NCBI GenBank assembly: GCA_010015805.1
Contig: ML978122.1
Coordinates: forward strand, 1,460,453 to 1,524,452
DNA from: Rhizodiscina lignyota
Lineage: Eukaryota
Reading direction: 5' to 3'
Length of the DNA: 64,000 nucleotides
This document shows positions 208 through 39,547 of the stretch, one piece after another (positions within the stretch are counted from its first letter, which is position 1; every line of letters starts with the position of its first letter). The position numbers and the translations under genes are program-made. The notes beneath the pieces were generated by a model. The model did not search any database and was not told where the DNA came from. It saw nothing but the letters and a program-made list of their open reading frames with translations.

Positions 208-1135
208 CTAGTGGTGGCCATCGTGATGCCCTGGAAGTGATCCGGCGCCGACGCGTTCATTCGTGCGATGCTCCTCTGCCCAGGCGAACAGGCTATCATA
301 ATCTCTGCAGATGTGGGTTCCATCCCATCCAGTCGTAGATCGCCCCGTGGGAACATCCGCGTTAGCGGCGGTCGTGTCTAAGGCCGGATCCGCCGAGCAC
401 TTGATCGCTTGTCTCAGAAATTCGGTACAATGATAGGTGTGCCAAACTTCCTGATCGGGCACCTGCGACGAATTCTCCATGGCCCTGCCGAAAGACTGCT
501 GTATCATGTACTGAACGCATGTTCTGGTCAGCCGATCCTGGACTTGGTTGTCCCGCTTCGCCACTTACCAAGCAATGAAGCTGATGGAAAACCGAGACAA
601 CGTAGATGTCCTCGGACCCATCTTTCCGGCCGGTTGGGACATTCACAAATCCTCGGCCCCCTTGCTTTGCTATCAGCTGTTTGTCACATCGTGGGGCATA
701 ACGCGATTGTCTCCTTACTAGGCATGTCTGCTTCCCATACAGCTTCCACTTCCGCTGTAATTTCAGTGACAGTTACAGCCTCAAATTTCTTGGCCACTAG
801 AGGATCTAAATGTAGCACTTCATTAGATACGTAGCTCCTTGGAATATTCAAATGGTACACTTACAGTCAGGTGCCAGGAGAAGGTTCTCAGGATTAAGGC
901 TTTGCGAAAGTGAAGGCGATGACAGTGGCAGCTGTACAGCAACTTTGATAAGAGGGAAAAGTAGAAGACCCAGGAGAATTACACAACAAGCAGTGAGAAT
1001 TCTGATTTGTCGGCAGAGCTTCAAAACAAGTCGATTCTCATCGTGTGGGAAGTCCTCAGTGGAGTCGCCGCTCACCGGGCTGTAGGATTCTTTCCACAAA
1101 TGAGAAAATGGGTTTGACCGAACAGCAGGATACAT
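208..1135 (-). CDS. UstYa-like / DUF3328 oxidase (fungal RiPP tailoring enzyme), 4 exons
   Basis: Spliced model: N-terminal TM segment (ILTACCVILLGLLLFPLI), then ...WEADMP-RGRGFVNVP...VVSVFHQLHCL-YMIQ...WHTYHCTEFLRQAIKCSADPALD...GWDGTHICRDYDSLFAWAEEHR. Two HxxHC motifs plus the LRQxxxCxAD and GWxxxHxCRD motifs are typical of DUF3328. GTAAG donors at 864, 718 and 568 on the minus strand. Confidence 0.93.
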
Positions 1136-1614
1136 TTTCAGAGACGTGACGATGAAGAAACTTGACAATGTTCAGGTATGAAAGATGCGGACTTGTTGAC
1201 AGAAAGAGAGTATCGTTTATAGAATCCTAGACAGAGCTCTGACATGTTTTTATAACGTCAAGCTCAACTCTAGGGGTATGGTAAGGAACATCCCCCTCTT
1301 AAAATTGGCCACAACTCCTCCGTCTGTGTCCCACGCGAGACCTGGCAATCACCGTTGCAAGGTATCCATACAATGATACCGGATTCACCGTCGACGTCCG
1401 ATGTATGTTGGAACCAGGGTTCACCACTCTATCTCACCGCCAACCTGTCTGAATGCTACGCATAGGCACTGCATCGAGGCACTATACCTCTTCTCGCAAG
1501 ATCATCCCACGGTCGTCCACACTGGCCGCCGTTCAATGTAATTGTACGATGGGTTGGACAATCCGTCGACTAATGGGACCCGCACCGGTATTGTTTGCCA
1601 TTCCGATTCTGATG

Positions 1615-1620: not shown

Positions 1621-1729
1621 GAGGTCTAGTTGTCGGCCGTTCCCATTGTGCTATCCAGCTTCGTTCAAGGAATATCTTCATCCCAGAGTGTCTCAGCAAT
1701 CGTTTCATCTCTTCTCAATATCTGCCGCA

Positions 1730-2287
1730 ATGAAGTTCTCCGGTGCCGTCGCCCTCGTGGCGCTCCTGCAAATGGCCATCGCTGCTCCCACCTCACCACT
1801 GCCGGCTGCCATTGAAGAGAAGCGACAGAGTCCCGACTTGGGTACCTACGTCTACTTCAAGCGTGAGGCTGAGGCTTCCGCTGAAGAGAAGCGCCAAAGC
1901 CCGGACCTAGGAACCTACGTCTACTTCAAGCGCGAGGCTGAGGCCGAAGAGAAACGCCAGAGCCCGGACCTTGGTACTTACGTCTACTTCAAGCGTGATG
2001 CTGAGGAGAAACGCCAGAGCCCGGACCTTGGCACTTATGTCTACTTCAAGCGTGACGCCTTGGCCGAGCTTGCGGAGAAGCGCCAGAGCCCTGATCTCGG
2101 CACCTACGTTTACTTCAAGCGTGAACCCGAGGCTGCTGCCGAAGAGAAGCGTCAGAGCCCTGACCTCGGCACCTACGTTTACTTCAAGCGTGAACCTGAG
2201 CCTACCGCTGAAGAGAAGCGTCAGAGCCCCGATCTTGGCACGTATGTCTACTTCAAGCGTGAGCCTGAAGCAGAAGAGAAGAAATAA
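1730..2287 (+). CDS. Secreted Kex2-processed repeat protein (RiPP precursor), 185 aa, 7 x core QSPDLGTYVYF
   Basis: Intronless ORF from ATG 1730. Signal peptide MKFSGAVALVALLQMAIA-AP; seven identical KR-QSPDLGTYVYF-KR units separated by acidic E/A/P spacers; divergent from a DUF3328 gene. Confidence 0.93.
   Translation: MKFSGAVALVALLQMAIAAPTSPLPAAIEEKRQSPDLGTYVYFKREAEASAEEKRQSPDLGTYVYFKREAEAEEKRQSPDLGTYVYFKRDAEEKRQSPDLGTYVYFKRDALAELAEKRQSPDLGTYVYFKREPEAAAEEKRQSPDLGTYVYFKREPEPTAEEKRQSPDLGTYVYFKREPEAEEKK
1820..2260 (+). repeat. Seven coding tandem repeats of KR-QSPDLGTYVYF-KR
   Basis: Amino-acid-identical cores with variable third codon positions (e.g. Leu TTG/CTA/CTT/CTC, Gly GGT/GGA/GGC) and variable-length spacers. 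Confidence 0.95.
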
Positions 2288-3169: not shown

Positions 3170-5200
3170 GAGCGAGGGCGATCCAGGAAGCCGATTGCCG
3201 TGACGAATATCCCTCCACACTCGCACATTTCCTTGTCACACCGCAGGCCCGTTTTTGCGACGTGCTTCAGATACTGCTGCATCATGTGGCATCGTACGAT
3301 GTCTACACGAGCGAATTTAGAATGTGGGCAGAGGAAGCACTTCTGGGTCGAGACCTTCCGTCGACGAGTATATGCATGAATGTTTCTTGCGATGGGGTCT
3401 CGCCCGCATTCTCATTATCATCATTATCATCGCTGGTATCGCTTTCTTCTGCGTTCCAAGCTGGCCTTCACGGCTGGAGTTGGGTCTTGATAGATGTAAA
3501 GCGCTGTAAGGTTGTATGTTCCCTGAATTCTTTATTGTGAGAGCAGCATCGCCGGTTGATGAACCTGCCTCTGATCCGTAGGATGCATCGACGATGCGAA
3601 CGCGTTCCGGGCATACGTAATAGGGAGCACGTAGCTCCTAATCTTCTTCTTTCTCAGATTCCTGTTTGGATACTTCTTCGTCTGGGATGGCCCCATCCGC
3701 AGCATTGGCGAAGGTTGCCAATCTACTTGTTTGTTTCGTCATTGGGCGTATCGCGGAAGTAGTCTACTTCCATCTTGCCCTCCTCTTCCCTTCCTAAACG
3801 TTGAATCTCCCTCGTCAATTCCTTGTGCTCTTGACAAAGCTCCAGACACTGGGACTCGCCCTTCTTCAGGGTTCCTGCCGAAGATTGAATCTGATTCTTT
3901 ATCCAATTCCTCTCCGATCTCAGCTTGATGATCTTGGGATCACGGCGAATGCGCCTTGCGTGCTGGATACACCGACTATTCATGCTGATCGGCGCCAACG
4001 GATCTCGCATACTCTTACGAGCCGCTTGTCAAGGCCCTCCTGCATCGGACTAGCCAAGGTGACCTGTTGCAGGCCACCAATAAGGTCAGACTGTAGTGTC
4101 TCTCGAATCCGTGTTCCCAGACTGACTCAAGGCTTTCATCCGTCAGGGCGACGAAACTCGCTGGTGAAAGTAAACTCTGAACGATAAAGGACTATATGAA
4201 GAAAGGGAAGCTGACTGTTTACCTTGTTTGCGGCCCAGCGTCTGTATACTGCATAGAAACTTTTTTCCCACTCGTAACCAACCCTTCGGAGGCGTGCTTC
4301 AGTGCAACATCGCTGACGTCGTAGGTCGTGGGCTTCACTGGGTCTAGTTTCCATTCTTCTGCAGTCCGTTCTATACTCCGGAGAGCATGGACCTTGAGTT
4401 TATGCTCTTTTTAATAATTGGGAGCTTGGGAAGCCGAAGGTGGGTACGGAGCTTCCAGATGAGCTCAGGGCTCAGGTTTTCGTTATTAAATGCGTGGTCT
4501 CAAAATGCCATCGCAACGACTTGTAGGGTGGGGCAGTAGGCCAGCTGGTAGTCCCAATGCAGGATATATCTTGTCATATTGGAATCGTTAGTCTCAAATA
4601 TACTCTCGGGGGAACTAATTATTACCTGTCTATGCTCTTTGCTCTCTCTTTCATATTGCAGAAATTGACTATCGCGCAGGGGATATCGGGACCATTTGAA
4701 TTTGGAAGGTAGAATAACTGAATATCCTGCCAACATACTGTGTTGGAATCGGTGTCGACGGCGATGGTCTCTGGGATATGACTTTTGAAACCTGACTCCG
4801 ACTGGTATGTTCACTGGTATGGTCGCCATTCTCTTGAAGCACGCCCGGTCGTGTGCCAGTGATGGAAGACCACGGTTGAACAGTTGATTGTTGGACAAAG
4901 CAATTGTTGAATCGGAAACAAGTGGAGTGCTTCCAGAGGAAACGCTGGTGAAGGGCCTGCTCATCCGGCCGAGGATAATTTTTTAATGCTCCGAGCCAAG
5001 GGTGTTCCGGGTGCCGGTTAGGAATCTTAGGATCCCTCCAATTATTCCCCACTAAGACGATGATGTCTTTGTCGGTTGGACATTCGTGGGCTTTGCATTG
5101 ACCTTCGACCAACGCTCGTTGGGTCAGCTCACAGCCGTTGATTTGCTGCCCATTTGCGGTCGTCAGTCTTGCGGTAGTGAACAAAGTCATACTTCTTGCA
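3170..5200 (-). pseudogene. Degraded DUF3435 tyrosine-recombinase-like gene (Starship captain family); boundaries approximate
   Basis: Collinear fragments across frames on the minus strand: SSITGTRPGVL (~4837-4870), DYQLAYCPTLQVVAMAF*DHAF (~4490-4555), YRRWAANKVN (~4218-4246), LSQSG...FERHY/QSDLIG.LQQVTL.SPMQEGL (~4030-4130), RDPLAP...RRDPKIIKLRSER...DYFRDTP (3735-4007), EED*ELRAPYYVCPERVRIVD (~3585-3650), and a degenerate C-terminal Zn-finger-like segment (~3200-3300). Multiple frameshifts and stops. Recognised from remembered family consensus, not from an HMM search. Confidence 0.72.
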
Positions 5201-6111
5201 TCCGACCTGATAGATACTGGCTCGCTTGAACAATCTGTTCGGTGCTACAAGATTTCTAGGTGTAATACTGCAGCATAGTGCACATAGAGTCATACTGAGC
5301 GCTGGGCCTCTGAGCGCGCTAATGTCTTTATCATAAAGGTAAGGATCGGGAATGCGGTTACATCAAACCATATTGTGCTCACAAGAAGGACGTTAAGATG
5401 CTTGAAAGTTATGCCACTGGCTTTGCCAGTGGGACTTGTTGTAATGCACCGCTTACTGCACTCTGCATTGCAGTTGAATGGACTTTCTCTATCGCTATCC
5501 GTGTCGGAGTATCCACAGATATAGATTGGCTAATCCACACTGAGTTCGACGATAAGGTTTTGCGCACAGATGCCATAGGACTAGCAGGTGACTTTACGAA
5601 CAGGCAGCCTATCGTGGTTTTTGTAGAGAGAATGCTTTACGGGATATATTCCAGTCCGAAGGGGCTAACTAGATCAGCGTCATAAAATCCAAGAGAAACT
5701 CCACGATGATGACCTTTCAAAAACGCTAGTCCGTAAGCCATCTACTTCATATCAGTAATAATGATTGTATTCCGTACCCCTTAAATATCATGTATTGGGC
5801 GACACGGGGCCCAACGGGACTGCAATCGATGCGCGACGAGCAGGCAGTCGAAACTGAGTCTTCGACATACAAACCTGTATTCAATCACGCTTTCATGCAC
5901 CCGTACACTTCGTCTCGAATGTGCACTTGGCCTAGAAATTGAAAACTTTCATTAGTCGGAGCGGATGCAATTACTTAGTGTGTAGAAAGTTGTTCGCGAC
6001 CTTCAGGCTTGGCACCACCTTGCTCCTTCTAAACTCCGAATCTTCGATTCTCGCGGGGCCTCTTAACATCCCCAAGTCTATCTTGTCAAGCATGCCAGAG
6101 CGTAGTCAAGG

Positions 6112-7513
6112 ATGAAGAGAACGCTTCTTTTATGCTTCATACACGGTTTTAAGGTCCGACCCTTCCCTTGAACCGCGCCGCACATTGCTTAACTATTTGG
6201 ACAGGGCGGCGATGATACCTTCGAACGCTTCCCGGAAGACTTGCGCGCGCTTGTAAGCCATGCGATGCCTGATGTCACTGTCTATGCGATCCAATACCCG
6301 AAATTTCAGACTCGCGGGGATCTGAGGGACTGCGTGAGGCGCTTCAAAGAATGGTACATTACTATTTGGTGGACACTACGATGCGCCGATGCTGATGTCT
6401 TGGGCAATGGCAGGTTGCAGAATAAAGTCATAGACCTCGAGGTCGCGAATCAACAGCCTTCACCTACGGTCGATCCTTCGGTGCGCACGATATTGGTGGG
6501 ACATTCTATGGGGTACGTCGCTAGATTCCATGTTGTGGGTGACGTGGCACTGAACACTGCGTACCAGAGGCATTGTTGCAGCAGAGGCAGTGCTCTCTAT
6601 TTGCCAGGACCAGCCGATTAGTTCCTCCGGCGAGCTCTCATCCGATTCCGCTGGCTTCATGTTCCCTTATATTCAGGGCATTCTTGCATTCGACACTCCA
6701 TACCTTGGAATCGCTCCTGGAGTTGTGGCTCATGGTGCAGAGGGCCATTTGAACAATGCATCGGCCGCCTATCAAGCAATTAACAATGTCGCCACATCAT
6801 TCGGATGGGGAGCAAAGAGCGACCCGGGCCCGGCTGCGTCCGTCGAGGCGAGCAAGTTGCTTCCGCCTGCAAGCAGCAACAGCACTGCCGATGCCGCTGC
6901 TACGCCTGCTTGGCAGCGATGGGGACGCTACGCAATGTTTGCGGGTGCAGCAGGTGCAGTCGCCGCAGGTGGTGCTGCAGCTTACATGAAGAGAGATTCA
7001 CTCTCGGTGGGCTGGAAATGGGTGGGCTCACACCTCGAGTTTGTTGGATGTCTTGCACGTGGCGCAGAGATGGAGAAGCGTCTGCAGTCCATAATCGATA
7101 TGGAGAGGGAGCACGACTTCGGGTTCCTTGACATCTATACCGCTCTCGGACGAGCTGTGGAAGGAAAGAGTAGCTGGAGCAGCGGTGTGCTCGGAGAGCA
7201 GCGTACATTCTGCACATTGCCAAAGAGCGGGTCGCGGCAGAAATACTTTCTCAAGGCTACGAACGACGCTGCGGAAGATGAGACGTGGGCTCACACCGGG
7301 ATGTTCACGCCGCGTAGCAATCCTGGATATCATGCCATGGCCGAGGCTGCCAGAGAGATTATCGGCCGATGGACACAGGGCAAGTGGTATGCAGATGCCA
7401 CGATGGACGAGACGAAATTACGATGCGGGGACGATGCTGAAATCGTAGACGGACCCGGAGAGGTTGAAGAACTGGACACCGAATTTGATACCCACGGCGA
7501 CTTGGGAGCTTGA
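6112..7513 (+). CDS. DUF676-like alpha/beta hydrolase (putative serine esterase), 4 exons
   Basis: MKRTLLLCFIHGFK-GGDDTFERFP..., nucleophile elbow ILVGHSMG-GIVAA, and LAFDTPYLG motif; short GT-AG introns restore the frame. Confidence 0.85.
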
Positions 7514-23942: not shown

Positions 23943-26847
23943 ATGTCGACTCAATTTCCTCACCATCCCCCGGATATCCACTCCCAATTATCTCAAGACC
24001 TTGGCCGGTCTGGGTCGTTCAAGAAGCCCGAGATGCCAACCTCAGCTTGCATGAGCTGCAACCGCCGCAAGCTGAAATGCGACAGAGAAGCGAGCGGATG
24101 CAGCAATTGTGTGAAATCGGACGTGGTAAGAATTGCCATACGCACCTATCTTAGTAACACGCTAACATTTATGTAGACATGTTGTTCTCCCGCTTCGAAT
24201 TGCCAAGTTGTTCTCATGCTAACAGCTTCGCTAGGCATCTATCCCCCGCAGAAACGAGCAGCTAGGCGTAAACGGGGCCCGTACAACAAGGAGAAGACGA
24301 GGAGGGAGAGGGAGCTTGAAGCGTCTCTGAAGTCGTTGGGTCTCAAGTCTCTCGAACTCACCGATTCTTTTGGAAGTCAAAGTATCAGCATTCCAGGTAG
24401 CTTTGATGGGATCCCGACAACTGGAGCTGTTGGCGCTCCATTCGGTGCGGACCCTGCGGGCGCCATTGCACAGTGGGCAAATGCGATACACGGAATCAAC
24501 AGCCACTCGACAACCCCAAACAGGAGCCCGGAGAAGAAGCATGTCATGCATAATATGCAACAATGGCCTGTTCTACCGCCAATTGCAACAGACCATGCCA
24601 TACCGATGCAACACAGCGCTTCATATGGACCTCCAATGGCGTACTCCCACTCTCCAGAACAGACGCACAGCAGTCTTCTTCTTGAGAATCAGCATGATCT
24701 TATCTTCGGCTCTCCAACGTCGACGACTCCCTCGCTGTACCCTTTGCATCCACCTTCGAGCCAAATACTGGAGTATTGGCAAATATTCACGGTCAACAGT
24801 ACGTCAATCCACCTCTACACTCAGTGTAACGAAGCTAACAAGCCTAATAGTTGATCCTGTAACGAAAGTGCTTCATGTGAGTAGTGTTCCGCATGCTTTT
24901 CGACGTTCTCTGCTCAATGGCCTATCGATGGAAGTCATCGTCATTCCTCCCCAATCCTCTTTCTACGAGTCTCGAACCACGTCCATGAGAATGTTGCATC
25001 ATCAAATATCTGTTCATCGCGACTTTCGAACTTGTAATCTCAGGTCTTGATTCTCCACTGCTTCTACGGTCTTCGCCTTTGGAGTTTTCGCTCCCGGAAG
25101 TCTCACCTTGCTGATTAATCTCCAACGCTACAGGTACCTTCATTTGGGAGTCATATCATGGAAGCGAAGCTCAATCTTCAAGCGCTTGATGTCGGCCTTG
25201 AGGCTCTCATGTTCGCTGTTTATTTTGCAGCGGTCACCAGCCTAACTCCAAGCGAGTGCCAGATGCGCTTCGGAGAAGGCAAGGAAACACTGTTAGCTCG
25301 GTACAAAGTTGCCGTGGAAAAGGCCTTGGGAAAATCCAACTTGCTCACGTCACAAAATATCATGACATTGCAGGCACTTACACTGTACTTGGTAAGGTTA
25401 CGATATGGCCTCAAAGAGCTGCAGACGTGCTAACCCGAGTAAAGTCATGCCTCCGCGTCACCGATACCAGCAGGATGACATACACTCTGACTGGCCTCGC
25501 CATACGTCTTGCCAGATCCATGGATTTGCATTTAGACGATCCGCGTCTCAATCTTTCTCCGTTCGAAAACGAGATGCGAAAACGACTGTGGTGGACCATT
25601 TGCTCATTAGAGTGTCGTTCTGCCGAGGAGTACGGCTTTCATCCGTCTCTCGGCGGGCAGACATTCGATTGTTCACTCCCACTCAATGTCAACGACGAGG
25701 ACCTTGACCCGGACTCTACTGAGCCCCCTGAGTCCCGGCCCGGATGCACCAGCATGACATGGGCTCTCGTCAGATTCGAGCTGGCAAAGATTATCTTCCG
25801 CGTTTGGAACTTATCGTCGAAGCAAGACAAAGACAAAAGTCTAAACCCTCGAGACCTCGAACTGGAAAAGGAGCGGATCCTTGACGACGGCCAACGCCAT
25901 CTTGAGACGCAGTATCTGAAATATTGCCGCAGCTCCCGCCCTTTTGACTGGATGACGGCCACTTTTACCCGGCTGATGATTGTAAGTTACCGCCCCAACT
26001 ACCCCTCGCAAGTCACCCCACGGCGACCCACATGACAATTCGCCACCCATGTCAAACTTTGCTAATACTGTCGCAGACGAAATTGAGACTAATACTACAT
26101 CATCCGTTCAACCCCGATGCCGTTCATCCCTTACCCAAGGAACTGAGGGAGAAATGTTTCCATACGTCGATCGAAATCCTTGAACAGTCTTCTCTTTTGA
26201 GAAACGAGCCTCGCATCAAGCGATGGATCTGGATTTTCCTCAATCACCATCAATGGCAGGCTCTCTCGTACATTCTATCCGAACTATGCCACCGCACCGG
26301 AAGCGAGCTCGTTGACCGAGCATGGCGGATCGTAGACGAGACAGTCGCCAACTGGGACGACAGATACGACAGAGTCCGACAGAGCGTCATGTGGGAACCA
26401 ATGAATAGGCTATTGATCAAAGCCCGTCAGGTCCGCGAGCATGACCTCATCTCCAGGCAAAACTCCTACGCCAGCTCTAGCAGCGACCATAACCAGCATA
26501 CCAGTCCCAATTTTATAGATCCCTGGGCTTCGAACAATACGTTCCAGCAGACAGAGCCCTTGACCATTGCGCCGTCAGCCGTCACCACCCAAGGAGGACC
26601 TCAATTCGGGAGCTTTGAAGAGCCATGGTTCGGAAATGCTTCAGTCACGTCTGCGGACCTCATGCTACCAAATATGCCTACTTTGTGTCCAGATCCGGTC
26701 GAGTCCGGCTTCTCGACGCCTCTGCAGCCGAGCACGTCCGCTCCAACAAGGACGAATTCGGATCTGCAGTCTCTCGTTGAGGGATTCGAAAGTCTTCGGC
26801 CCGACGAGTTTGCAGCGCTTTTCGAGAATTATCCGATGACTTATTGA
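23943..26847 (+). CDS. Zn(II)2Cys6 transcription factor, candidate regulator of the adjacent NRPS-like cluster
   Basis: SACMSCNRRKLKCDREASGCSNCVKSDV-T-CIYPP (last Cys completed via a 4-nt microexon), NIDPVTKVLHVPS, GLAIRLARSMDLH, EMRKRLWWTIC, LPLNVNDEDL. Confidence 0.9.
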
Positions 26848-27372
26848 TGAAGTTATGATTGTCTCTTTTCGGAAGGGGCTTTGCCTCTATCCCGCTTTTC
26901 AGCGACCTTCGCAGTACACATCATCTGGGAGAATATGAACTTCTTTGCGGCGTTTTGGTGGAGAAACACCAAGGCGAGAACAGGATGGGAGGTCTTCTGA
27001 GGCGATTTTTTATTCATTTTGCTCCCGGCGTTTGTCGGCGTCCTAATGGCAAATATGCCTTTTATACCATACAAGAACGGTAAGGGTGGACGGTTGCAGC
27101 ATGAAACATTTCGCATCGCGTGGAGGGAGGAAATTGAGTGGACGAAACTCGGACCTACGGAGTAGTCGTAACTCCGAGGTCACATGACGTGATTGCAAAC
27201 GGGAATTAAGTGTAGCACTTTAACTTTGAAAGTCAGCTGCAAAAATGGACATACATGAGCTGACGCTCTAAATATCGAGATCGAGATCAAATTTACCCTA
27301 TGACTCGACTATTGCTCTATTTATGCACATTAGATGTCATTGGCTTAGCAGTGAAGCAGTCGAAGGGTATAT

Positions 27373-28799
27373 TTACTGCCCCAGTTCCGCGGCCTGGCCC
27401 TGCCGGCCCAAGGCCCCTTCGCCCCCCTCGCAACATGTTTCCTTACACTTGCCTCCCCTGAACCGTACACTGAGAAGTCTCTTCTCACATTTCTCGTTAA
27501 TGGTCATCTCTTTGACTGCATTCAAAGCAAGCTGTGACTGGTCGATTGGAGGAAGTAAAGAGCGTGCAGAAAGCCTCGCTTGCTGGGCCAAGATGGCATC
27601 CATGAGGACAATGGCCGCCATCGACTCTACAATAGGGACTGCTCTGGGAACGACGCATGGATCGTGCCTTCCTTGGACTTCAAGAACGCCCGGCTCCATG
27701 TCGAAGGATGTTGTGTTTTGTGTCTTTCCGATCGTTGCTGGAGGTTTGAATCCGACTCGGAAGTAGATGGGAGCGCCATTAGAGATCCCTCCTTGGACGC
27801 CACCGGAATTATTTGTCTTGGTAGTAAGGCGAGGACTTGAAAATATGCTGCTTGGGTTTCTGGAAGCTGGCGACGATGCACCAGATGGTATGAACGCATC
27901 GTTGTGGATCGATCCTGGGAATTCAGTGCCATCAAAGCCGGAACCAATCTCAAAGCCTTTCGACGCGGGAATGCTCATCATCGCAAACGACAGCATAGCT
28001 TCTAGTTTATGGAAAGCTGGCTCTCCCAACCCGGTTGGTGCATTTCGAATTACACAGGTTACACTGCCGCCGATGCTGTCTTTCCTGTCACGGTATGTCG
28101 AGATCACCTGGCCCATTCTGGAAGCGCCAAGGGGGTGTGGGCATCGTACGGGTGCATAAGAATCGACCTGTTCCCGGGTGACAGTCTTCAGGAGATGCTC
28201 GAATTCCGAGTGAGGCTCCAGAATGAGCTGGTCTACGGTTCTAGGAAACAGCTTTTCAGATCCGACCGATGAGACGAAGGCTACGATCTCGATCCCGTGC
28301 GCCTGGTATAAGTACTTTTCTGCAATGGCGCCCGCAGCTACCCGACCTTTCAGTCCCATAAAGTCAGCTGTCCGTTTAGGTTCTGTTTCGATATCTACGT
28401 ACCGATGGTCTCACGAGCACTGCTCCTACCACCTCCCGAAGATGCTTTGATGCCGTATTTCTCCAAATATGTCCAATCCGCGTGACTTGGACGAGGGTAT
28501 TGATCGATTTTCGACCTCTTATAGTCCTGCGGCCGTGTGTCTTCATTTCGGACCATTAGAGCAATGGGAGTGCCAAGGGTGACTCCGTTCTCGATGCCGG
28601 ATTGGATTTCGATTCTGTCTTTTTCGTTCCTAGGAGAGTTCAGGACGCTCTGACCGGGTCTCCTCCTGTTCAGCTGGCGATGGATGTCTTGCGAATCGAG
28701 CTGCATTCCTGGCGGCACATTCTCGACGATGCAACCTACGGAGCGACAGTGCGACTCTCCGTACGTCGTAACGCGAAAATGCTCTCCAAAACTCGACAT
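27373..28799 (-). CDS. aro2: Chorismate synthase (ARO2/aroC family), 2 exons; probably a cluster paralog
   Basis: [103 protein letters not shown]. Confidence 0.96.
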
Positions 28800-29210
28800 G
28801 ACGAAATCTCAGTGGCGAGGATTTAGAAGAAAGAAGCTTCAAAAGGGAATAAGGGTCTAACGGTGCACCCCAGATTATGTATATCAAGCTAACTCGAGCC
28901 AGAATGCCATCATCGTTTGCATCACCAGATCCATTTCTCTTGCATTCTCGATCGATTATCGATCGAGATTCAAGAATGGACCGAAGGCCTTGGCCTTTTC
29001 GGCGGTGGACCATTATGACGCTGGTTCAGACAATTTCAGGGTCGCGCAAGCTCTACAGTCCCACTGGAAGCGCGTCATAGCCCTCACGACAGGCTTTGCC
29101 ACCTCTTATACTCTCTAGCTCGAGGCAGTCTAGGCCAGTCTTTGTCTCTACATTGGCCTCCTCTGTGGAGTTGAGGCTGACGATGTTGAAATCCCCGAAT
29201 ATTTTTGCCT

Positions 29211-29222
29211 TTTCGGCCCCGA
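29211..29222 (+). promoter_or_regulatory. TTTCGG-CC-CCGA candidate Zn2Cys6 site in the chorismate synthase / prephenate dehydratase divergent promoter
   Basis: Inverted CGG triplets with a 2-bp spacer; the same pattern occurs three times in the DAHP synthase / NRPS-like promoter. Confidence 0.5.
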
Positions 29223-29431
29223 CAGGGGTGACATATGATGCGCAGACCCTGAGAGGTTTCGCCATGTGCGTTACGAAAGAGGAAAGTCCTTTCACGAATA
29301 TCCTCTTCTCAAACAGTTAAATATTCAGACCCTGGAGACCCTTTGGAAGTCATTGCCCCAAGACTTGAATATTAGACGTTCAAAAAGCCTCCTAACATAA
29401 ACACAAACACACACACAAACACACACACAAA

Positions 29432-30611
29432 ATGAACTGCGAAGAACCGATTGTTGCATACCTTGGCCCAAAGTCTAGCTGGACTTCCCAGGTTCGTTTT
29501 CATGCATGACGCTTATTCAATCCTTTACTTGCTTTTCTGCAACAGTACTAATGCTCTTCAACCAGGCTGCAGAGAAATGCTTTCCCGGTTCGGAATATCG
29601 TCTGACACCTAAAGAAACCATCCAAGGCAGGTCCACGCTGACGGTAAATGAGACTGATACTAATCCGCTTCATCACAGACGTCGTAGAGGCAGTCCAGAG
29701 CGGCAAAGTCGACCGAGGCGTAAGTACCCCGTATACTCGCAGCTTGGCAACATACTTACAATGTGAGACAGGTCATACCTTTCGAAAATAGCTCGAACGG
29801 AACCGTTATCACAACGCTAGATACCCTTTCCACGTCACACTTGGAGTGTTCGGACCTCACGATAGCTGGCGAGACGACGCTCAAGATATCGCATTGCTTG
29901 CTTGTGCGGTCAATAGAGCATGGTCAAATCACACCTCCCGACTCCCCTGCTGGTGCAGGTACCCCCGCAGACCATACAGATCAAGGCTCGCGAAGCCTGG
30001 ACGGCTCCGCATTCGCAGAATTAAAGCGGATCAAGCACGTATACTCGCATCCACAAGCGCTGGGCCAATGTCGGGAGTTCTTAGCGGCGAACTTGCCGTG
30101 GGCGGAGCTGCACCAGACCTCCTCGACTGCCGAAGCCGCAATTATCGCATCAAAGGACCATACCAACTCCTCGGCCGCCGTCGGCAGCGTGTTGGCGGCG
30201 AGGCAAATCGGCCTGCGCGTGCTGCTTGAGGGTGTGCAGGACGTGCGCGAAAACTCAACACGGTTCCTCGTGCTCAAGCGCGACCCTGCTGATGCGCCAC
30301 CGTGGCATTCTTCGAGAACCCATCCGGAAGGCGAGCAACGCAAGCTGCTCGTGTCGTTCGCAATCGACCAGCGGGCGCAGGGCAAATTGGCCCATGCGCT
30401 AAGCACGTTTAATAAACCCAGCATCCAGCTCACGAACATCCATTCACGCCCGAGCCGCAAATCGCCGTTCCACTACGTGTACTTTGTGGAGATCCAGTGG
30501 CGTGCTGAGAAGGATGGCGGACAGCAGCTTCAGGACGCGCTGCGAGACTTAGGCAAAATCTCACAAAGTCGCCGCTGTCATGGCACTTGGGGGCCGACTT
30601 TAGAGTGGTGA
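29432..30611 (+). CDS. pha2: Prephenate dehydratase (PHA2/pheA family), 4 exons
   Basis: VAYLGPKSSWT, VIPFENSSNGTV, VYSHPQALGQC, SSTAEAA, ENSTRFLVL (TRF catalytic motif), ACT domain with GKLAHAL and IHSRP. Confidence 0.93.
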
Positions 30612-33600
30612 TTAGATGCAACTGGGTGTGGGATGGGATTCCCACGGTGCAAGTTTGATGGCTAGGCGGCACCGCACCGCGTGGGATGTTCGCTTCTTGT
30701 TTGGCATGTATGTACAGTACTTTGGGATAGGGTTTGCGTTGGCGTTGGATGCGGAAATTGATCTACCAAAAAGTTTAGTATGGCAATGTACAATATCCGT
30801 GATATTTCCTGCAATGATCTGATTGTGGCTACCCTGTCTCGTGGATCGCGGTTCGGGGGTTCTGCCTCCGCTGACCGTCGTTGTGGGATGACCCTCAATG
30901 GGAGCTATTTGTGGGTGTGGAAATGCATGTGTCGCTCCACTGATCCTCGCGAGTTGGCAAAGCAAAGATAATTGTTTCGCGACCAACAGCACGAACTAGG
31001 CTTAATGGCGTTCAGTGTGCTCTGGCGTGATTCTAGCCACCCCTGCGAGATGCAGCAATCAGTCGAGATGCACTGTTCCAGGCACTTGGAGGATTTGATG
31101 AGAAGGGGTATGCAGTACGCCATCCTTTGTAAGTCGCCTTACCTACCACGCCCAGCCAGGAGTAAGAGCAGCAATCTCGAGTCTTGGACTTCTCCATACG
31201 AAGTGGTGGACCATGTGCTCTAGACTCAGTCTTACAAGACCAAACCCCACGTCATACTCGCGAGCTTCCACCGTCCTGGGCACGCGTTCAGGGTGGAGGC
31301 GCTCGCACTTGCGGGGACGTCCCTGGATGGCGGAATGGCAGCTACAGCTGCGGAAACGAGTTTCTAACGACACCCAGGCTTCGACATGCACCTTGTGGGT
31401 ATTCAGTGGGGTAGCGCCACTCTCGGGAGCCAACGTTTTGCCCAGCACCCTGTTGCCTGCGCAGATCAACGTCCTGGCGGCATCCTCTCCACCCAGTCAG
31501 CCAGGAGCCGCAATCAGCTTGCCGGTAGACTAAAAGAGTCCCTTGAATTGCACCCTCGTTCGCACGTCCATGCAAGCCGTGCCGAAATGCCTGTTGCGAA
31601 AACTCCGTAAAGCCTCGATTCGGAAATTAACTGCCAATCACCAACACTCGTTAAGGAGCAACTCCTCCGTTCCTTATACAACGTTCGGGCCCGGAAGCTG
31701 CTCCGGGATTCGTTCGTTTGCTAACCGCCCATGGCATTTCGAACCCGAACCACCTTCGAGCCTCATGCCCATTCTCCATAGTCTTGCACTAGGTACTGCA
31801 GCGTGCAGCCTGCTCCGCGAGGAATCAGTTAGCCACCATCTCAGTCCGTTCCTCAACCAGTCCAGTCGAGACCGCAACATCCTCTCCACAACTTTGAGAG
31901 ATGCATACGCGTGTTCAGACGGAGTACTTGCACTCGTTTTGCTCGCGTGGGGAGCGTTCGAGGTCGGCTATTCGCAACAGCCTTTGCACTCACGGGTACC
32001 AATTGCCCATTCACCCCTGTGCCCTCATCCGGCCCTAGGAACTGTGAATCTGTATCTTCCTAGTCAGCTTACTGAGCTTGCGTGAGGGTAGATACCAATT
32101 GCCCATTTTTACGCGGATGCCGGTGCACGTTTATCGCATCCAGAATGATATGGCTTTCGATTGTGCCATCTCCGACTCTCGTAAAATTAAAGACCCTGAA
32201 TATTCCTTCCGTCAGATTCAGTATGCCCATGTCAGGGTGAGATTCACGATTCGGATCTTGTTCTACCGTAAATAGAATAAGCAACGCCCAAGTCGCTCTT
32301 ATCTCTACCGGGCTTGTGTCGAAAGCAGACGAGGCCAGCGATCTTCTTAAAGGGTCCTTTCTGTATGCGGTAGCGGATGGCATTGACTACTTCAAGCGAA
32401 CCCTGAAGGATGCCAAAGCATTTCGCAGGCCATTTGCAGGATGACGACATATTTCTGAGAGACGTCAATCTGACCATTAAGGTAACGAGAGCGTCGCTGA
32501 CTTGTGATAAGTTTACATGATTCCACATTGAGCGCATCAATAGTCTTCACCATTATCTGGAATTGAGGTACACATTTCGTCCCGGAATGCACAATTGACC
32601 GCAGCAGGCGCTTCGAGTAGCATTCGCATCTGCCGTATGCTGTAACATCAGCCATTCGGCATCCGAAACGCTTGAGTAAGGATCCACAACGGCAAATGCT
32701 CGCTTGAGTCAGGAAGTTCGTAATCACTATCGTGAAGTGGTGCGGTTCAGCCCCAAAGCTCGCAACCGGTACTGTCAAAGGACGGAATCATCTAGTTTGT
32801 TCCGTAATCTCTCCGGATACATGCTGGCCAACATCGTATCGAATTAGCTTCCACGTCTTCTCGTGTGCTGAGGAGATCATGACTGCAGAATCGCGTTCCA
32901 CAGCATGCAAGACATTTTGCGTTCGCCTTGCTTTTTGCATGCCCATAAGCAGCTATTATCGCGGCATGGTCCGAAGCAAGTATACTAGGCGACCGGAGTG
33001 ATTTAAACACCGCGGAATCGCGGGATTTGCTCACACGATACTACCGGAGCTGTTAATTAATTAATAGAAGAGTTGAGCGTAACTGACGCGTAGCGAAAGG
33101 CGTCGACTCTCCAGACGTCCAGGATAAGTAACCCTAATGGCCGAAGCGGCCGCTGAGAAGCGCAAGCCGTATAGGCAAGGAGGTTAGGTGGAAAGAAAAT
33201 GGAATCTGGACCAAATGAGAGACGTTAATTAGGGGAGGAATTCTACTCCGGAACGTTTACTAAACTTTTGAAGATGCATTTGCTTAAAATGTCGAAATTA
33301 TGTAGATACTTTCGGAATAATCACGTGATATAAATTTGGCAAGAGCTGAGCTCTCGGCTGAGATTGAGGGAATTTGGATGATTGAGGGTAATAATGGTAT
33401 TAACGTGCAACCGAGCTTATCCTTGAAGCACTTTCAGAAAGACCCACGAAATGAAGGGTGTTTTCCAGTTGTCCGTGCCATTGCCTTGGCGTTATAAATT
33501 AGTCCGAGACGAGCCGAGCTGGCAGGCCCTGCAGTGCCGCAGCCGCAGTTTGTCGGCCAACAAACTTCGCCTCCTCCGGAAACGCTCGCCCTCCCATTTC

Positions 33601-33922
33601 ACCAACTCATCCACTTCTCTTGCGTTGTGGCTGTTCACTCTCACTTCTATCTGTGTCATGTTTCTTTTCATGTAGCAGCATAAGGATCACTTGTCTTATA
33701 TCGTCTATGACGAGTCGTTCTCGACCCATGCGTAAATGACAGACGAGATTTGGCCATGGGAACGCGTTGAAGAAAGTGCCCTAATCCCAGTGCTCGTTCT
33801 CCTTTGAATGCTGTCTACAATCTATTTCCGCCAGTATCATACAAATGCGACTCCCCAACACCTCAAGGCTAGCGATATGCGAGATCTGACAATTGGAAGT
33901 GAAGGGTGAATGAGGACTAATT

Positions 33923-35251
<1,329 letters not shown>

Positions 35252-35500
35252 CTTGAGTGAAAGGGATGTTGATGATATCTCTGGTATGTCGGGTTTTTAT
35301 CAAATCTTTGGCGTCACGTTCTCAAATGATCCTGAAGTCTGCCTCTCGACGTTTTGGGCTTCTCGAAGGATCCGCTGCTTTTCATATTGGTGATTTTCCC
35401 TTCGGGACTTACAGGCCAGCTCAAGAGCCGCTAAATTTGCCCGAGCACTATACTGAGACAGTATCTCGGCGAGGTATCGTGTTGTTCTCCGACCCGTGAC

Positions 35501-35933
35501 TTTCGGGGCCGTGTGGGTGTGGTTAGGTATGCCGAGCCAGGGTCCCTCACAACGACCATCGCAACCTTTCGCAGAGACTATGAACCAATCTTCGCGTGTC
35601 CTGGTCTCAAATTACAAGACGCGGATGACTGTAGTACAAATTCGAATTGCGTCCTGGTAGTTTACTAAAGGCTTCGAGCAGTCACATTTTTACTCGAATA
35701 TTTCGACGCCTCGCAACTCATAATTACTATCAGTGCGCAATCACCATCGGCACCGAATGTTTACTTTTCAGTGGCTGATGATACTTTTATGGACTCACTT
35801 GCCTCACAGTTCGGCTTGCATTCGGCGGCAAAGCCAGCTGTGCTTGCGAGCTCCCCAGACCAATGACGAAATCTACACTATCAATGCCAAATTGTAAGAC
35901 GAACCAACGCGCGACTGTGCCTTTCGGGACCGA
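35501..35933. promoter_or_regulatory. Three TCGG-N2-CCG sites in the DAHP synthase / NRPS-like divergent promoter
   Basis: TTTCGGGGCCGT (35501), TCGGCACCGAAT (35747), TTTCGGGACCGA (35922). Confidence 0.5.
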
Positions 35934-36161
35934 CCATGCGGATGTCGTGGTGTTCTCCATTCTCAACAGCAGGAGATCTCGATGATGTAGCACTAAGCCA
36001 AGATGCAGGATGTGAGTATACATATTGCCGAGTACTCAGGGCATCATAGATTCTTCGGATCAGTCAACGCATCTTTATATCCCTCGAAATCTCGATTCTA
36101 CACAAAAAAGGCCCTTTTACTATACTGACTCAGGGCACGGTACTATCACAGTTCATCTGCA

Positions 36162-39114
36162 ATGGCTCCAGGCCGCGTCGACCCTCTGCCTCAAACTGAG
36201 GTCCTCTCGGCCAAGGCCCCGAAGAACCTCTTCCAACTCCTCACAAACGCAGCCCGCGAAGCTACTGGCCGCGGTCTCTCCTACTATGCTCCTAACAACG
36301 TAAAGAAAGTCAGCGCGACGACGACATATGCCGACCTCCTCCAAACCGCCACTAACAATGCGAAACTCCTCCACTCCACCACGGGCATCGCTCCAGGATG
36401 CACCGTTCTCCTTCACTTCGATAACCACAGGGACAACATCGAATGGATGTGGTCCGTTCTTGCCTGCGGTTTCCTTCCAGCGATCTCGACCCCTCTCAGC
36501 AACGATAATGACCAGCGCAAGCGCCACCTCATGCATCTTCACCGACTGTTGAAGAATCCAGTCGTTCTTACCAAGGAGTCCCTCGTCATGGACTTCGAGA
36601 CCGTCAACAACCTTAACATCCAGACTATTGAGTCTATCCGCACCCTGCAGCCGAAAGAGGATGAGACTCTCGCGGAGCAAGGCCTCTTCAAGGAGGAGGA
36701 TGAGACTGCTATGCTCATGCTTACTTCTGGCTCGACTGGCAACGCTAAGGGTGTCTGCCTCCGTCACGGCCAGATGCTCCGCGCGATTAAGGGCAAGAGC
36801 TTGTTGACCGGCACCACTCCTAACGATGTCTTCATCAACTGGATCGGTCTTGACCACGTTGCGAACTTGACGGAAACTCACCTCCACGCCATGAGCTTGG
36901 GCGCTGATCAAGTTCACGTCCAGGCCGCAGATATGCTTGCGGACCCCCTTTCCTTCCTGGACCTAGTCGACAGGCACCGGGCTATGTACTCTTTTGCTCC
37001 GAACTTCTTCATGGCCAGCCTCCGCAAGGCTCTTGACAACCCCGAGGAGGTTGGTTCCCGCAAGTGGGACCTTTCCTGCCTGACCTCTCTCATCTCTGGT
37101 GGTGAGGCCAATGTTGTTGAGACGGCCGACGCTCTCACCAAGCAGTTGCAGAAGTTTGGTGCTCCTAACAACTTCATCCGCCCCGGTTTCGGTATGACCG
37201 AGACCTGCGCTGGCTCCATCTACAGCAAGGACTGCCCTGCATACGATATCGAGAACAACTGGGAGTTTGCCTCCCTTGGATCCTGCATTCCGGGTCTTCA
37301 GATGCGTGTCATGCTCGACAATGGTCTCTCCGCGCCACCAAACGAAGTCGGTGGTCTTGAGCTCTACGGCCCAGTGCTCTTCAAGGAGTACTACAACAAC
37401 CCCTCTGCCACCAGAGACTCGTTCACCTCTGATGGATGGTTCATCACTGGTGACCGCGCCTTCATTGACAAGAAGGGCCACATGGTTCTCGCTGGCCGTG
37501 CCAAGGAGACCATCATCATCAACGGTGTCAAGTACTTCCCTCACGAAGTTGAGACGGCCATTGAGGAGGCCAACATCAAGGGTGCCACCCCATCCTTCAC
37601 TGCTGTGTTTCCTCACCGCCCCAAGGGCTCCCAGACTGAGGTCCTGTGCGTTACCTATCTCCCCACATTTGAGCAGGACGACATTGAGACTCGTGTCAAG
37701 ACTACCGACGAGATCACGAAGGTCACCATCCTTCAATGCGGTGTCAAGCCGTACAAAGTCATTCCTCTTGAGAAGAAGTTGCTGCCAAAGACCACTCTTG
37801 GCAAGCTTTCCCGCGCCAAGATCCGAAATGCCTTCGAGCAGCGCAAATACGACTCTTATGCCGAGGCCGATGAGAAGCTCATCAAGGACTTCCGCAGGGC
37901 TCGCGTTGAGAAGCCGAAGACTGACCTCGAGGGGTCCATTCTGGACTGCTTTGCCGACCTCTTCGAGGTTCCGGACGATGAGGTTGGCGTCAACACTTCT
38001 CTTTACGAGATGGGCGTCAGCTCCATTGAGATCATCAAGCTCGCCACTTTCATCCGCAGGAGGCTCAACTTGGATGAGGAGATTCCAGTCATCACGATCA
38101 TGACCAACCCCACGATCCGTGGATTGGCAAAGGCTATTGAGAAGATGCAGGGCCCCGCAGAGTACGAGCCGGTCGTCTGCCTGCAGCCAAAGGGCGACAA
38201 GGTTCCGCTCTTCCTCATCCACCCTGGTGTCGGCGAGATCCTTGTCTTCCTTAACTTGGCCAAATACATCACAGACCGCCCCGTGTACGCCATCCGTGCG
38301 AAGGGCTTTGACGGAGAACAGTACCACAAGGACATTCCGGAAATCGTGAAGTGCTACCACGACGGTATCAAGAAGGCTCAGCCTAAGGGTCCGTACGCTC
38401 TTGCAGGCTACTCATACGGTGCCATGTTGGCATTTGAGACTGGTAAGCTGCTCGAGGCTGGCGGTGACGAAATCAAGTTCCTTGGCAGCTTCAACCTGCC
38501 ACCTCACATCAAGGTATGCACCCCCTCACTCCGGTCCCGAAAATTGGGCCCGAGGGGGACTATTTGCTAACCAATACCAGATGAGAATGAGGCAGCTTGA
38601 CTGGATCGAGGTGTTCCTTAACCTTGCATACTTCCTTGGTACGCATCCAACCTAGATTGAAGGCAATGCATCGATGCTGACACATAGCGCAGACCTCATC
38701 TCTGATGACTACGCCCACGCCATCTCTCCTGACATGCACAAGCTGTCGCACAGCGACGTGCTTGACTTTGTCATCTCCAAGGCGCCGCCAGAACGCATGG
38801 AGGAGATGGCGTTGTCGAAGGAGAAGCTCGCCAACTGGACCTCCATCTCCCACTGGCTGCACTGCATCGCGCACCACTACGACCCATCCGGCTCCATCTC
38901 CTGCATCGACGTCTTCTACGCCATCCCTCTCCAGGCCGTGGCCAAGGACAAGAGGATGTGGCTCGACAACCACCTCAACAAGTGGAACGACTTTGTGCGC
39001 GAGGACGTGCGCTTCACCGAGGTCGACGGCGCCCACTACACCATGATGAGCCCGTCGCACGTCGGCTCGCTGCAGAAGAAGCTGAGGGACGCCATGGCTG
39101 CTCGCGGCATCTAA
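36162..39114 (+). CDS. NRPS-like A-T-TE enzyme (aryl alpha-keto-acid dimerising synthetase family: AtrA/TdiA/MicA/ApvA-like), 3 exons
   Basis: A domain MLTSGSTGNAKGV, WIGLDHVANL, GFGMTETCAG, DGWFITGD, LPKTTLGKLSR; T domain GVSSIEI; TE domain HPGVGEIL, GYSYG, SFNLPPH, GAHYTM; no condensation domain. Confidence 0.95.
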
Positions 39115-39547
39115 GCTGGAGTAGGTGCGCGTTTCTTGCTGGCCGTAATGGAACTTTGTGTATGCGAATGAGCGAATCCACATTGTACAATATGTTTCCA
39201 TTTGTATTCTCACATCTTTCGGCGCATTGTGGCTTGCGATTAGATTGCTGGGGTACATAGAAGAATAAAGATAGAACCTTTCTTTTCAAGAACAGTTGTC
39301 TGCGCCTATTCATCCTGCATTTATCGCTCATTGCGCAAATGAGATGTACGTGAATTGTTCAATTGAGTGAAATTACGTCGTAAAGAACCGAAAATCTAAT
39401 GCGACAGTCAGATCTGAGGATTACTGGTAGTGGTTGAAACTCGGATTTGGACCAAGTAAAAATATTTTACAAGGTCGAAAACCAGATTGAATGATTGATT
39501 ACATGGATGCTCAGAATATAAATGCAATGTTTCTTGGATATTGTTTC

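Follow-up and report, generated by a model that had tools for sequence, protein, structure and literature searches.

A 5'-truncated, decayed pseudogene of a DUF3435 (Starship captain family) tyrosine recombinase at a catalogued locus of Rhizodiscina lignyota

The locus lies near the start of a stretch of 64,000 nucleotides of Rhizodiscina lignyota DNA (GCA_010015805.1, contig ML978122.1, positions 1,460,453 to 1,524,452), which we refer to as the window and whose coordinates are used below unless others are given. On its minus strand, from 4965 down to 3181, sits a 5'-truncated tyrosine recombinase pseudogene of the DUF3435 (Starship captain) family, called the relic hereafter. Its closest named relative is the Eremomyces bilateralis protein P152DRAFT_463208 (erebil1_463208, here P0002), to which it is 48.6% identical over 471 positions. 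The pieces of the relic are collected in Table 1 together with the neighboring features. On its 5' side, about 1.1 kb without recognizable genes is followed by an alpha/beta-hydrolase-like gene at approximately 6050-7513 (weak Pfam support, E 0.019). On its 3' side lies a Kex2-repeat precursor, whose Tyr-containing cores are 11 residues long and are separated by EA/EP/DA-rich spacers; no single contig of sequencing run X1 reaches across all of its repeats, and its exact sequence is absent from the protein collection searched. Four UstYa/DUF3328 loci stand in tandem (C2:1453653-1460938; window 208-1171 and L010 3164-9176, both minus strand), and a fifth ORF (L010 4808-5728), a single ORF of 306 aa with two HxxHC motifs, has no Pfam match. 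The tandem ends, left of the window, at a PRP22-like helicase about 10.8 kb from the relic (L010 2-2389, L011 8523-9998). Beside these UstYa genes, the precursor reads as a dikaritin-type RiPP precursor. Its spacers also recall alpha-pheromone precursors (ESM Atlas lead 0.85; best feature score 0.87, both of them leads only).

Table 1. Pieces of the relic and nearby features, in window coordinates.
Feature	Position	Strand	Support or remark
Upstream stretch, expected place of the N-terminal core-binding exons; single-copy	4966..6050		No captain similarity
First surviving coding piece, Box I TGTRPG (Arg codon 4851-4849)	4793..4965	-	67% to P0002 residues 123-180, E 7e-20
Second piece, past a frameshift near 4793, ends NFCNMKE	4626..4792	-	HSPs 4801-4628 with P0003, P0007, P0054-58
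Intron remnant 1: GT donor 4625, CTAAC branch 4591, first AG ends 4570; exact ancestral acceptor uncertain	4570..4625	-	Aligner places an intron here
DYQLAYCP...AF block; stop 4502-4500; frameshifts near 4411 and 4280	4281..4574	-	tblastn and profile alignments
Box II start, FYAVYRRWAANKVN: Tyr and Arg codons kept	4217..4279	-	Profile alignment, motif positions
Intron remnant 2, GT...pyrimidine-rich...CAG	4161..4215	-	Alignments; boundary ambiguous by 1-2 bases
Box II end: stop 4145-4143, ALSQSG, FERHY	4030..4160	-	Alignments
RDPLAP and helical/coiled-coil-like region, best single Pfam match	3711..4028	-	PF11917 27.7 bits; 44% to P0002 residues 348-454
Acidic linker, stop 3640-3638, PERVRIV..YG block; frameshifts near 3532 and 3468	3468..3710	-	tblastn with P0005 and P0056
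Degenerate Cys/His (Zn-finger-like) tail, frameshift near 3322	3181..3467	-	39% to P0002 residues 570-630, E 2e-8
Kex2-repeat precursor, 186 aa, secreted-type, 7 identical cores flanked by KR	1727..2287	+	0.9 kb from the relic's 3' end, on the side where cargo would lie
UstYa/DUF3328 gene, multi-exon, first of at least four before the PRP22-like helicase	208..1171	-	PF11807 E 5e-13

Several searches identify the relic. Among four of its ORFs scanned against PF11917, the one at 3726-4028 is the sole match and lies above the cut-off (27.7 bits against 25.8, E 1.7e-6), while the relatives score 167-327 bits with the same model. When the R. lignyota genome itself was searched with PF11917, four matches were returned, two of which are collinear within the window (4416-4583, model 89-143; 3729-4010, model 267-359), each with an E of about 2e-4 per genome and slightly short of the cut-off; none of 14 control genomes matched. 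The other two matches come from a second captain gene at a distance of 0.92 Mb, discussed below. Using tblastn, P0002 aligned to the window in six HSPs that follow one another collinearly between 4965 and 3181 (linked E 1e-44; further E values 7e-20 and 2e-8), and all nine DUF3435 queries (9/9) matched the relic collinearly, each at E 3e-15 or better, with the best match to the reversed window at E 0.009 as a control. A frameshift-aware alignment to a 10-sequence profile gave the relic a score of 620, whereas 38 other segments of the window reached at most 41.1 and 10 shuffles at most 31.4. We would like to note that this profile was made from proteins retrieved with the relic as the query; the PF11917 matches and a published listing (see below) are independent of it. 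A phmmer search with one frame, stops read through, retrieved 52 proteins with E values of 0.001 or lower, led by P0002 (1.9e-26). This overcomes the weak negative evidence of a word-seeded protein search with the 101-aa ORF, in which none of 102 candidates was significant. A sequence-profile search of the PDB returned nothing below E 0.9. The earlier note on this DNA, made from the letters alone, had proposed a hidden DUF3435 recombinase relic and had named a collinear multi-HSP tblastn or frameshift-aware search, as well as PF11917 on six-frame fragments, as checks. Both kinds of search came out in its favor.

That note had also listed seven motif fragments scattered over several minus-strand frames in the order expected of a captain. 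By six-frame translation, all seven are present, the labels given to them hold, and the frame does change between them: TGTRPGVL, with the Box I Arg, at 4860-4837; LAYCPTL, for the LAYCP..AF block, at 4544-4524; YRRWAANKVN of Box II, inside FYAVYRRWAANKVN (4258-4217); ALSQSG (4133-4116) and FERHY (4107-4093) for the catalytic Tyr region; DPLAP at 4004-3990, followed by a helical/coiled-coil-like stretch; PERVRIV at 3610-3590; and a Cys/His stretch to about 3181 for the Zn-finger-like tail, with CDKEMCECG at 3240-3214 (all minus strand). Such an ordered set is far beyond chance. The catalytic residues R-K-(H/Y)xxR-(H/W)-Y can likewise be traced: their codons (R 4851, K 4651, Y 4255, R 4243, Y 4095) keep the expected order but are spread over different frames; these sites were assigned from alignment and spacing (Table S5 of PMC11162782 for spacing), plus a hand count, and not from structure. 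Catalytic site 5 is a Q (4124) in the relic, as it is in P0054-57. The Lys codon at 4651-4649, part of NFCNMKE, aligns to the conserved K of NLKGRP and is presumably the catalytic one. At the start of Box II, the relic has one codon more between Tyr and Arg than the YxxR of its relatives, and the codon equivalent to the catalytic Tyr (4095-4093) is flanked by frameshifts near 4108 and 4091.

The interval given in the earlier note, 3170..5200, holds in part. Homology runs from 4965 to about 3181, while the last ~235 bp (4966-5200) show no captain similarity and are left unsupported, since the N-terminal ~150 residues were not found. Profile positions 1-153 went undetected upstream of the relic, with a score of 18.9 against 58 controls (mean 23, max 36.7), and searches of the rest of the genome with three queries did not find a captain N-terminus elsewhere. 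Among the relatives, this region is conserved like the remainder of the protein (46-48% vs 41-42%). The relic thus lacks two features of a functional captain, i.e., the core-binding (N-terminal) domain and an open reading frame after splicing.

As the earlier note had stated, the relic is not visible as one ORF; the longest stop-free frames within 3181-4965 have 98, 154, and 106 codons. There are 3-4 in-frame stops, at 4502-4500, 4145-4143, 3725-3723 (within the RDPLAP region in the preferred alignment), and 3640-3638. When GT..AG introns were permitted in any phase, the count of frameshifts was still 10-14 in 6/6 parameter and reference settings, and 10-11 at the four stricter ones, although one of those counted (near 4627) is an intron phase effect. 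The frameshifts are mostly 1-bp deletions, and seven single-base deletions appear in the profile alignments. One could suppose that this is an intact, intron-rich captain that merely looks broken because of introns or assembly errors, given that two segments of the relic are truly intron-like (4625-4570 and 4215-4161) and that the second captain of this genome is also spread over several ORFs. However, at least ten frameshifts persist with introns freely allowed, and most of them lie inside collinear blocks that have no spare sequence, so introns are ruled out as the cause of the frame changes. Assembly error is ruled out as well: run X1 yields a single 150x contig over 2167-12000 with flat depth, no joints at the locus, and 0 differences from the window, so the lesions are present there letter for letter (X1 is the only run with the stretch, and it is probably not independent of the assembly). 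The neighboring genes, moreover, have long open frames. The supposition of an intact captain is therefore largely refuted, and we consider it next to impossible. The relic is single-copy, in that a DNA search of the genome, which skips very common words, returns only the relic itself.

Beyond P0002, the relic is 42% identical to P0005, a metagenome protein, and 36-37% identical to Eurotiales proteins; using P0002 as a lead brought in five Talaromyces and Aspergillus proteins. In a 15-row tree, which has a very long outgroup branch, no reliable root, and no curated family references, the relic groups with P0002 and P0005 in one clade (97/90). P0002 retains the N-terminal region and is annotated as one protein, whereas the relic has no N-terminus and carries 13-15 lesions. 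Nevertheless, the Eremomyces gene model omits a conserved block and has odd substitutions, and on that account P0002, too, could be a copy in decay, or else its gene may have been wrongly predicted.

The relic locus is already known, as the same coordinates appear in the tables of the starfish survey (PMC11162782). Table S3 of that survey lists rhilig1_tyr9960 at scaffold2:1464178-1465417 on the minus strand, which corresponds to window 3726-4965; Table S4 labels it fam02; and Table S8 gives the R. lignyota genome two YRs and 0 elements. The rows for rhilig1_tyr9960 hold coordinates and family alone, with no pseudogene mark, and the listed interval ends at 3726, thus omitting about 545 bp of homologous 3' sequence that includes the PERVRIV block and the Cys/His tail. 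The fam02 label is also given to P0002, to P0057, and to the HEPHAESTUS captain, and Table 1 of the survey calls family 2 Hephaestus (PMC11162782). By its own published label and the labels of its relatives, the relic belongs to the Hephaestus family (fam02, clade 1). Its sequence fits the YxxR vs HxxR motif rule of the same survey (PMC11162782) as far as the residues go: the center of the relatives reads YxYR, i.e., YxxR and not HxxR, and the relic keeps the Y and the R with the extra codon between them. According to Table S6, fam02 was found in 5/130 Dothideomycete species vs 86/200 Eurotiomycete species (PMC11162782). Horizontal transfer from Eurotiomycetes was considered because of this enrichment, but we do not claim it, as the closest named relative comes from another Dothideomycete and the tree has no safe root.

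The second captain of the genome lies about 0.92 Mb from the relic on the same contig (G000:C2:2387223-2389504; L006 4221-6600, minus strand). It is apparently intact, contains introns, and has been published as rhilig1_72239 of the fam05 Prometheus family (PMC11162782). It is ruled out as the parent of the relic, with which it shares no DNA similarity. It is of a different family, and its identity to the relic's relative P0056 is 23% over the matched stretch. Its neighbors include TPR, DUF7025, and HET genes, with a DUF3723 gene about 26 kb downstream. An AT-rich, RIP-like stretch with a composite index of up to 0.99 is located directly upstream of it (L006 6001-8000), and 3' of the gene, at a distance of about 78 kb, there are UstYa matches (C2:2305912-2309480).

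A further point of comparison for the relic is HhpA, the captain of Starship Hephaestus in Paecilomyces variotii, which shares the fam02 label and a YxxR-type center with it. HhpA is intact and nuclear, has a fold that resembles Cre, and mobilizes its own element into TTAC(N7)A sites; its residues Y381 and Y416 are both required for excision, and a frameshift in hhpA strongly lowered excision in an experiment (10.1101/2022.08.04.502770). In the relative P0054, through which the comparison was made, the two tyrosines are 35 residues apart by hand count, the same spacing as Y381-Y416, and the relic retains an identifiable codon for each. In contrast to HhpA, the relic is unable to code for a protein, and no element ends could be shown for it.

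Regarding how the relic decayed, it keeps 63/98 of the invariant columns that it covers, compared with 63/75 in P0002, 66/76 in P0004, 17/21 in P0005, and 74/100 in P0008, and its terminal branch in the 15-row tree is 0.71 vs 0.33 and 0.36 for its sisters; both the branch length and the loss of invariant sites are inflated by alignment noise near the frameshifts. RIP was rejected as the cause of decay, with dinucleotide indices, which are blind to old or light RIP, at the background of the window (TpA/ApT 0.62 vs a mean of 0.63±0.09; (CpA+TpG)/(ApC+GpT) 1.27 vs 1.24±0.09). Opposite three of the four stops, the relatives have R, W, or Q, and these stops could be C-to-T type changes. Overall, the decay looks neutral.

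A search for the element that the relic may once have served gave little. No boundary, direct repeat, TIR, or empty site was found for it, and the TIR/direct repeat search produced nothing above chance. TTACA occurs upstream of the relic at 5444 and 5265, and a TTAC(N7)A site lies at L010:2771, all at background frequency, which for TTAC(N7)A is 0.59 per kb per strand. Neither RIP nor a sharp GC step marks an element end, and no 5S rDNA or other Rfam target was matched in the 26 kb covering the relic and the left flank. No DUF3723 gene is near the relic, all three genome hits lying beside the second captain, and no FRE, PLP, or NLR gene appeared on either flank in the ORF lists and the Pfam scans of selected ORFs. 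The locus is thus outside the definition of a Starship-like region as DUF3435 together with DUF3723, FRE, PLP, or NLR (PMC9156397).

Taken with the published element count of 0, the lack of any such end means that it is family membership that places the relic in a once-mobile Starship. We nevertheless think it very probable that the captain at this locus belonged to the Hephaestus family and once mobilized its own element, that it then lost its 5' end and decayed under neutrality, and that no functional product is encoded there today. Either a whole Starship of that family (fam02, clade 1) or, at the minimum, the captain gene would have integrated here in a Dothideomycete; while intact, and like HhpA, as its family membership suggests, the captain would have been a nuclear Cre/XerD-like tyrosine recombinase that, with a tyrosine as its nucleophile, excised the element and put it back in at sites of the TTAC(N7)A type. 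The copy would then have lost its 5' ~150 codons, i.e., the core-binding domain, and subsequently have accumulated roughly 10-11 frameshifts, 3-4 stops, and substitutions at normally invariant sites by neutral decay that bears no RIP signature; it makes no recombinase today. A different history would be that of a domesticated, stationary host recombinase or DNA-binding protein, or of a solo YR free of cargo, which never captained a cargo-bearing element at this locus. The single copy between ordinary genes, the lack of element hallmarks, and the fact that no element is delimited for the locus in the survey tables (PMC11162782) fit such a history. Against this, the relatives belong to the Hephaestus family, whose type element is mobile by experiment (10.1101/2022.08.04.502770), and the patchy distribution of the family, with 5/130 Dothideomycete species, is unlike that of a conserved host gene (PMC11162782). 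We regard this history as quite improbable.

The neighboring peptide genes raise the further thought that the captain of our preferred account left cargo behind. In that extension, the region from the relic to PRP22 (at most ~10.8 kb) would be a small derelict Starship, with the Kex2 precursor and at least four UstYa genes as surviving cargo; put more fully, the dead captain of a small Hephaestus-family Starship would have brought in a complete dikaritin-type RiPP cluster, with its seven-core precursor and four or five UstYa oxidases, and the cargo would have been kept. The cluster is indeed on the 3' (cargo) side, starting 0.9 kb from the end of the relic, with the nearest UstYa Pfam match at 2.7 kb, and if insertion were uniform, only ~0.3% of positions (counting one side) to 0.6% (counting either side) would be as close as 2.7 kb to a UstYa locus, which makes the adjacency notable, though this figure is post hoc and uniform insertion is itself an assumption. 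DUF3328 genes are listed as cargo in four rows of Table S7 of PMC11162782, and cargo outliving its captain has been described (PMC9156397). In L010, TTAC(N7)A occurs a single time on the minus strand, at L010:2771, in the gap of ~0.8 kb that separates the last UstYa gene from the helicase; at the background frequency, however, such a gap would hold one site in about one case in three, so its presence is unremarkable. On the other side, 76 UstYa exon matches amount to 36 loci on 16 contigs (33.4 Mb), a large DUF3328 complement set against two DUF3435 loci, so UstYa clusters are common in this genome without captains. Furthermore, the two presumed ends share no TIR or long repeat (the best matches are of 11-13 bp, with E values no better than 0.3), DUF3723 is found solely beside the second captain, and neither end shows RIP or a sharp GC step. 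We therefore hold the derelict-Starship extension to be unlikely, and the more specific proposal of an imported and retained RiPP cluster to be a tentative idea of the same low standing.

As to what the relic means, dead or fragmentary captains and remnant Starships have been described as common (10.1101/2022.08.04.502770, PMC9156397), and the present one, while real, is ordinary, being of a common kind and already tabulated. What it adds concerns the census itself, since a heavily broken relic is counted there as a Hephaestus-family YR in a class with 5/130 species positive (PMC11162782), and part of the rare fam02 occurrence in Dothideomycetes may therefore be fossil and not live. If the peptide cluster were former cargo, it would suggest a way, open to testing, in which fungal RiPP clusters come to be spread so patchily, and Starships would be a vehicle for whole clusters of this type; a RiPP cluster as Starship cargo did not turn up in the titles and abstract openings of the literature searched. 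Farther along the window, at 24000-39300, we also observed an NRPS-like A-T-TE gene clustered with genes for DAHP synthase, chorismate synthase, prephenate dehydratase, and a fungal transcription factor.
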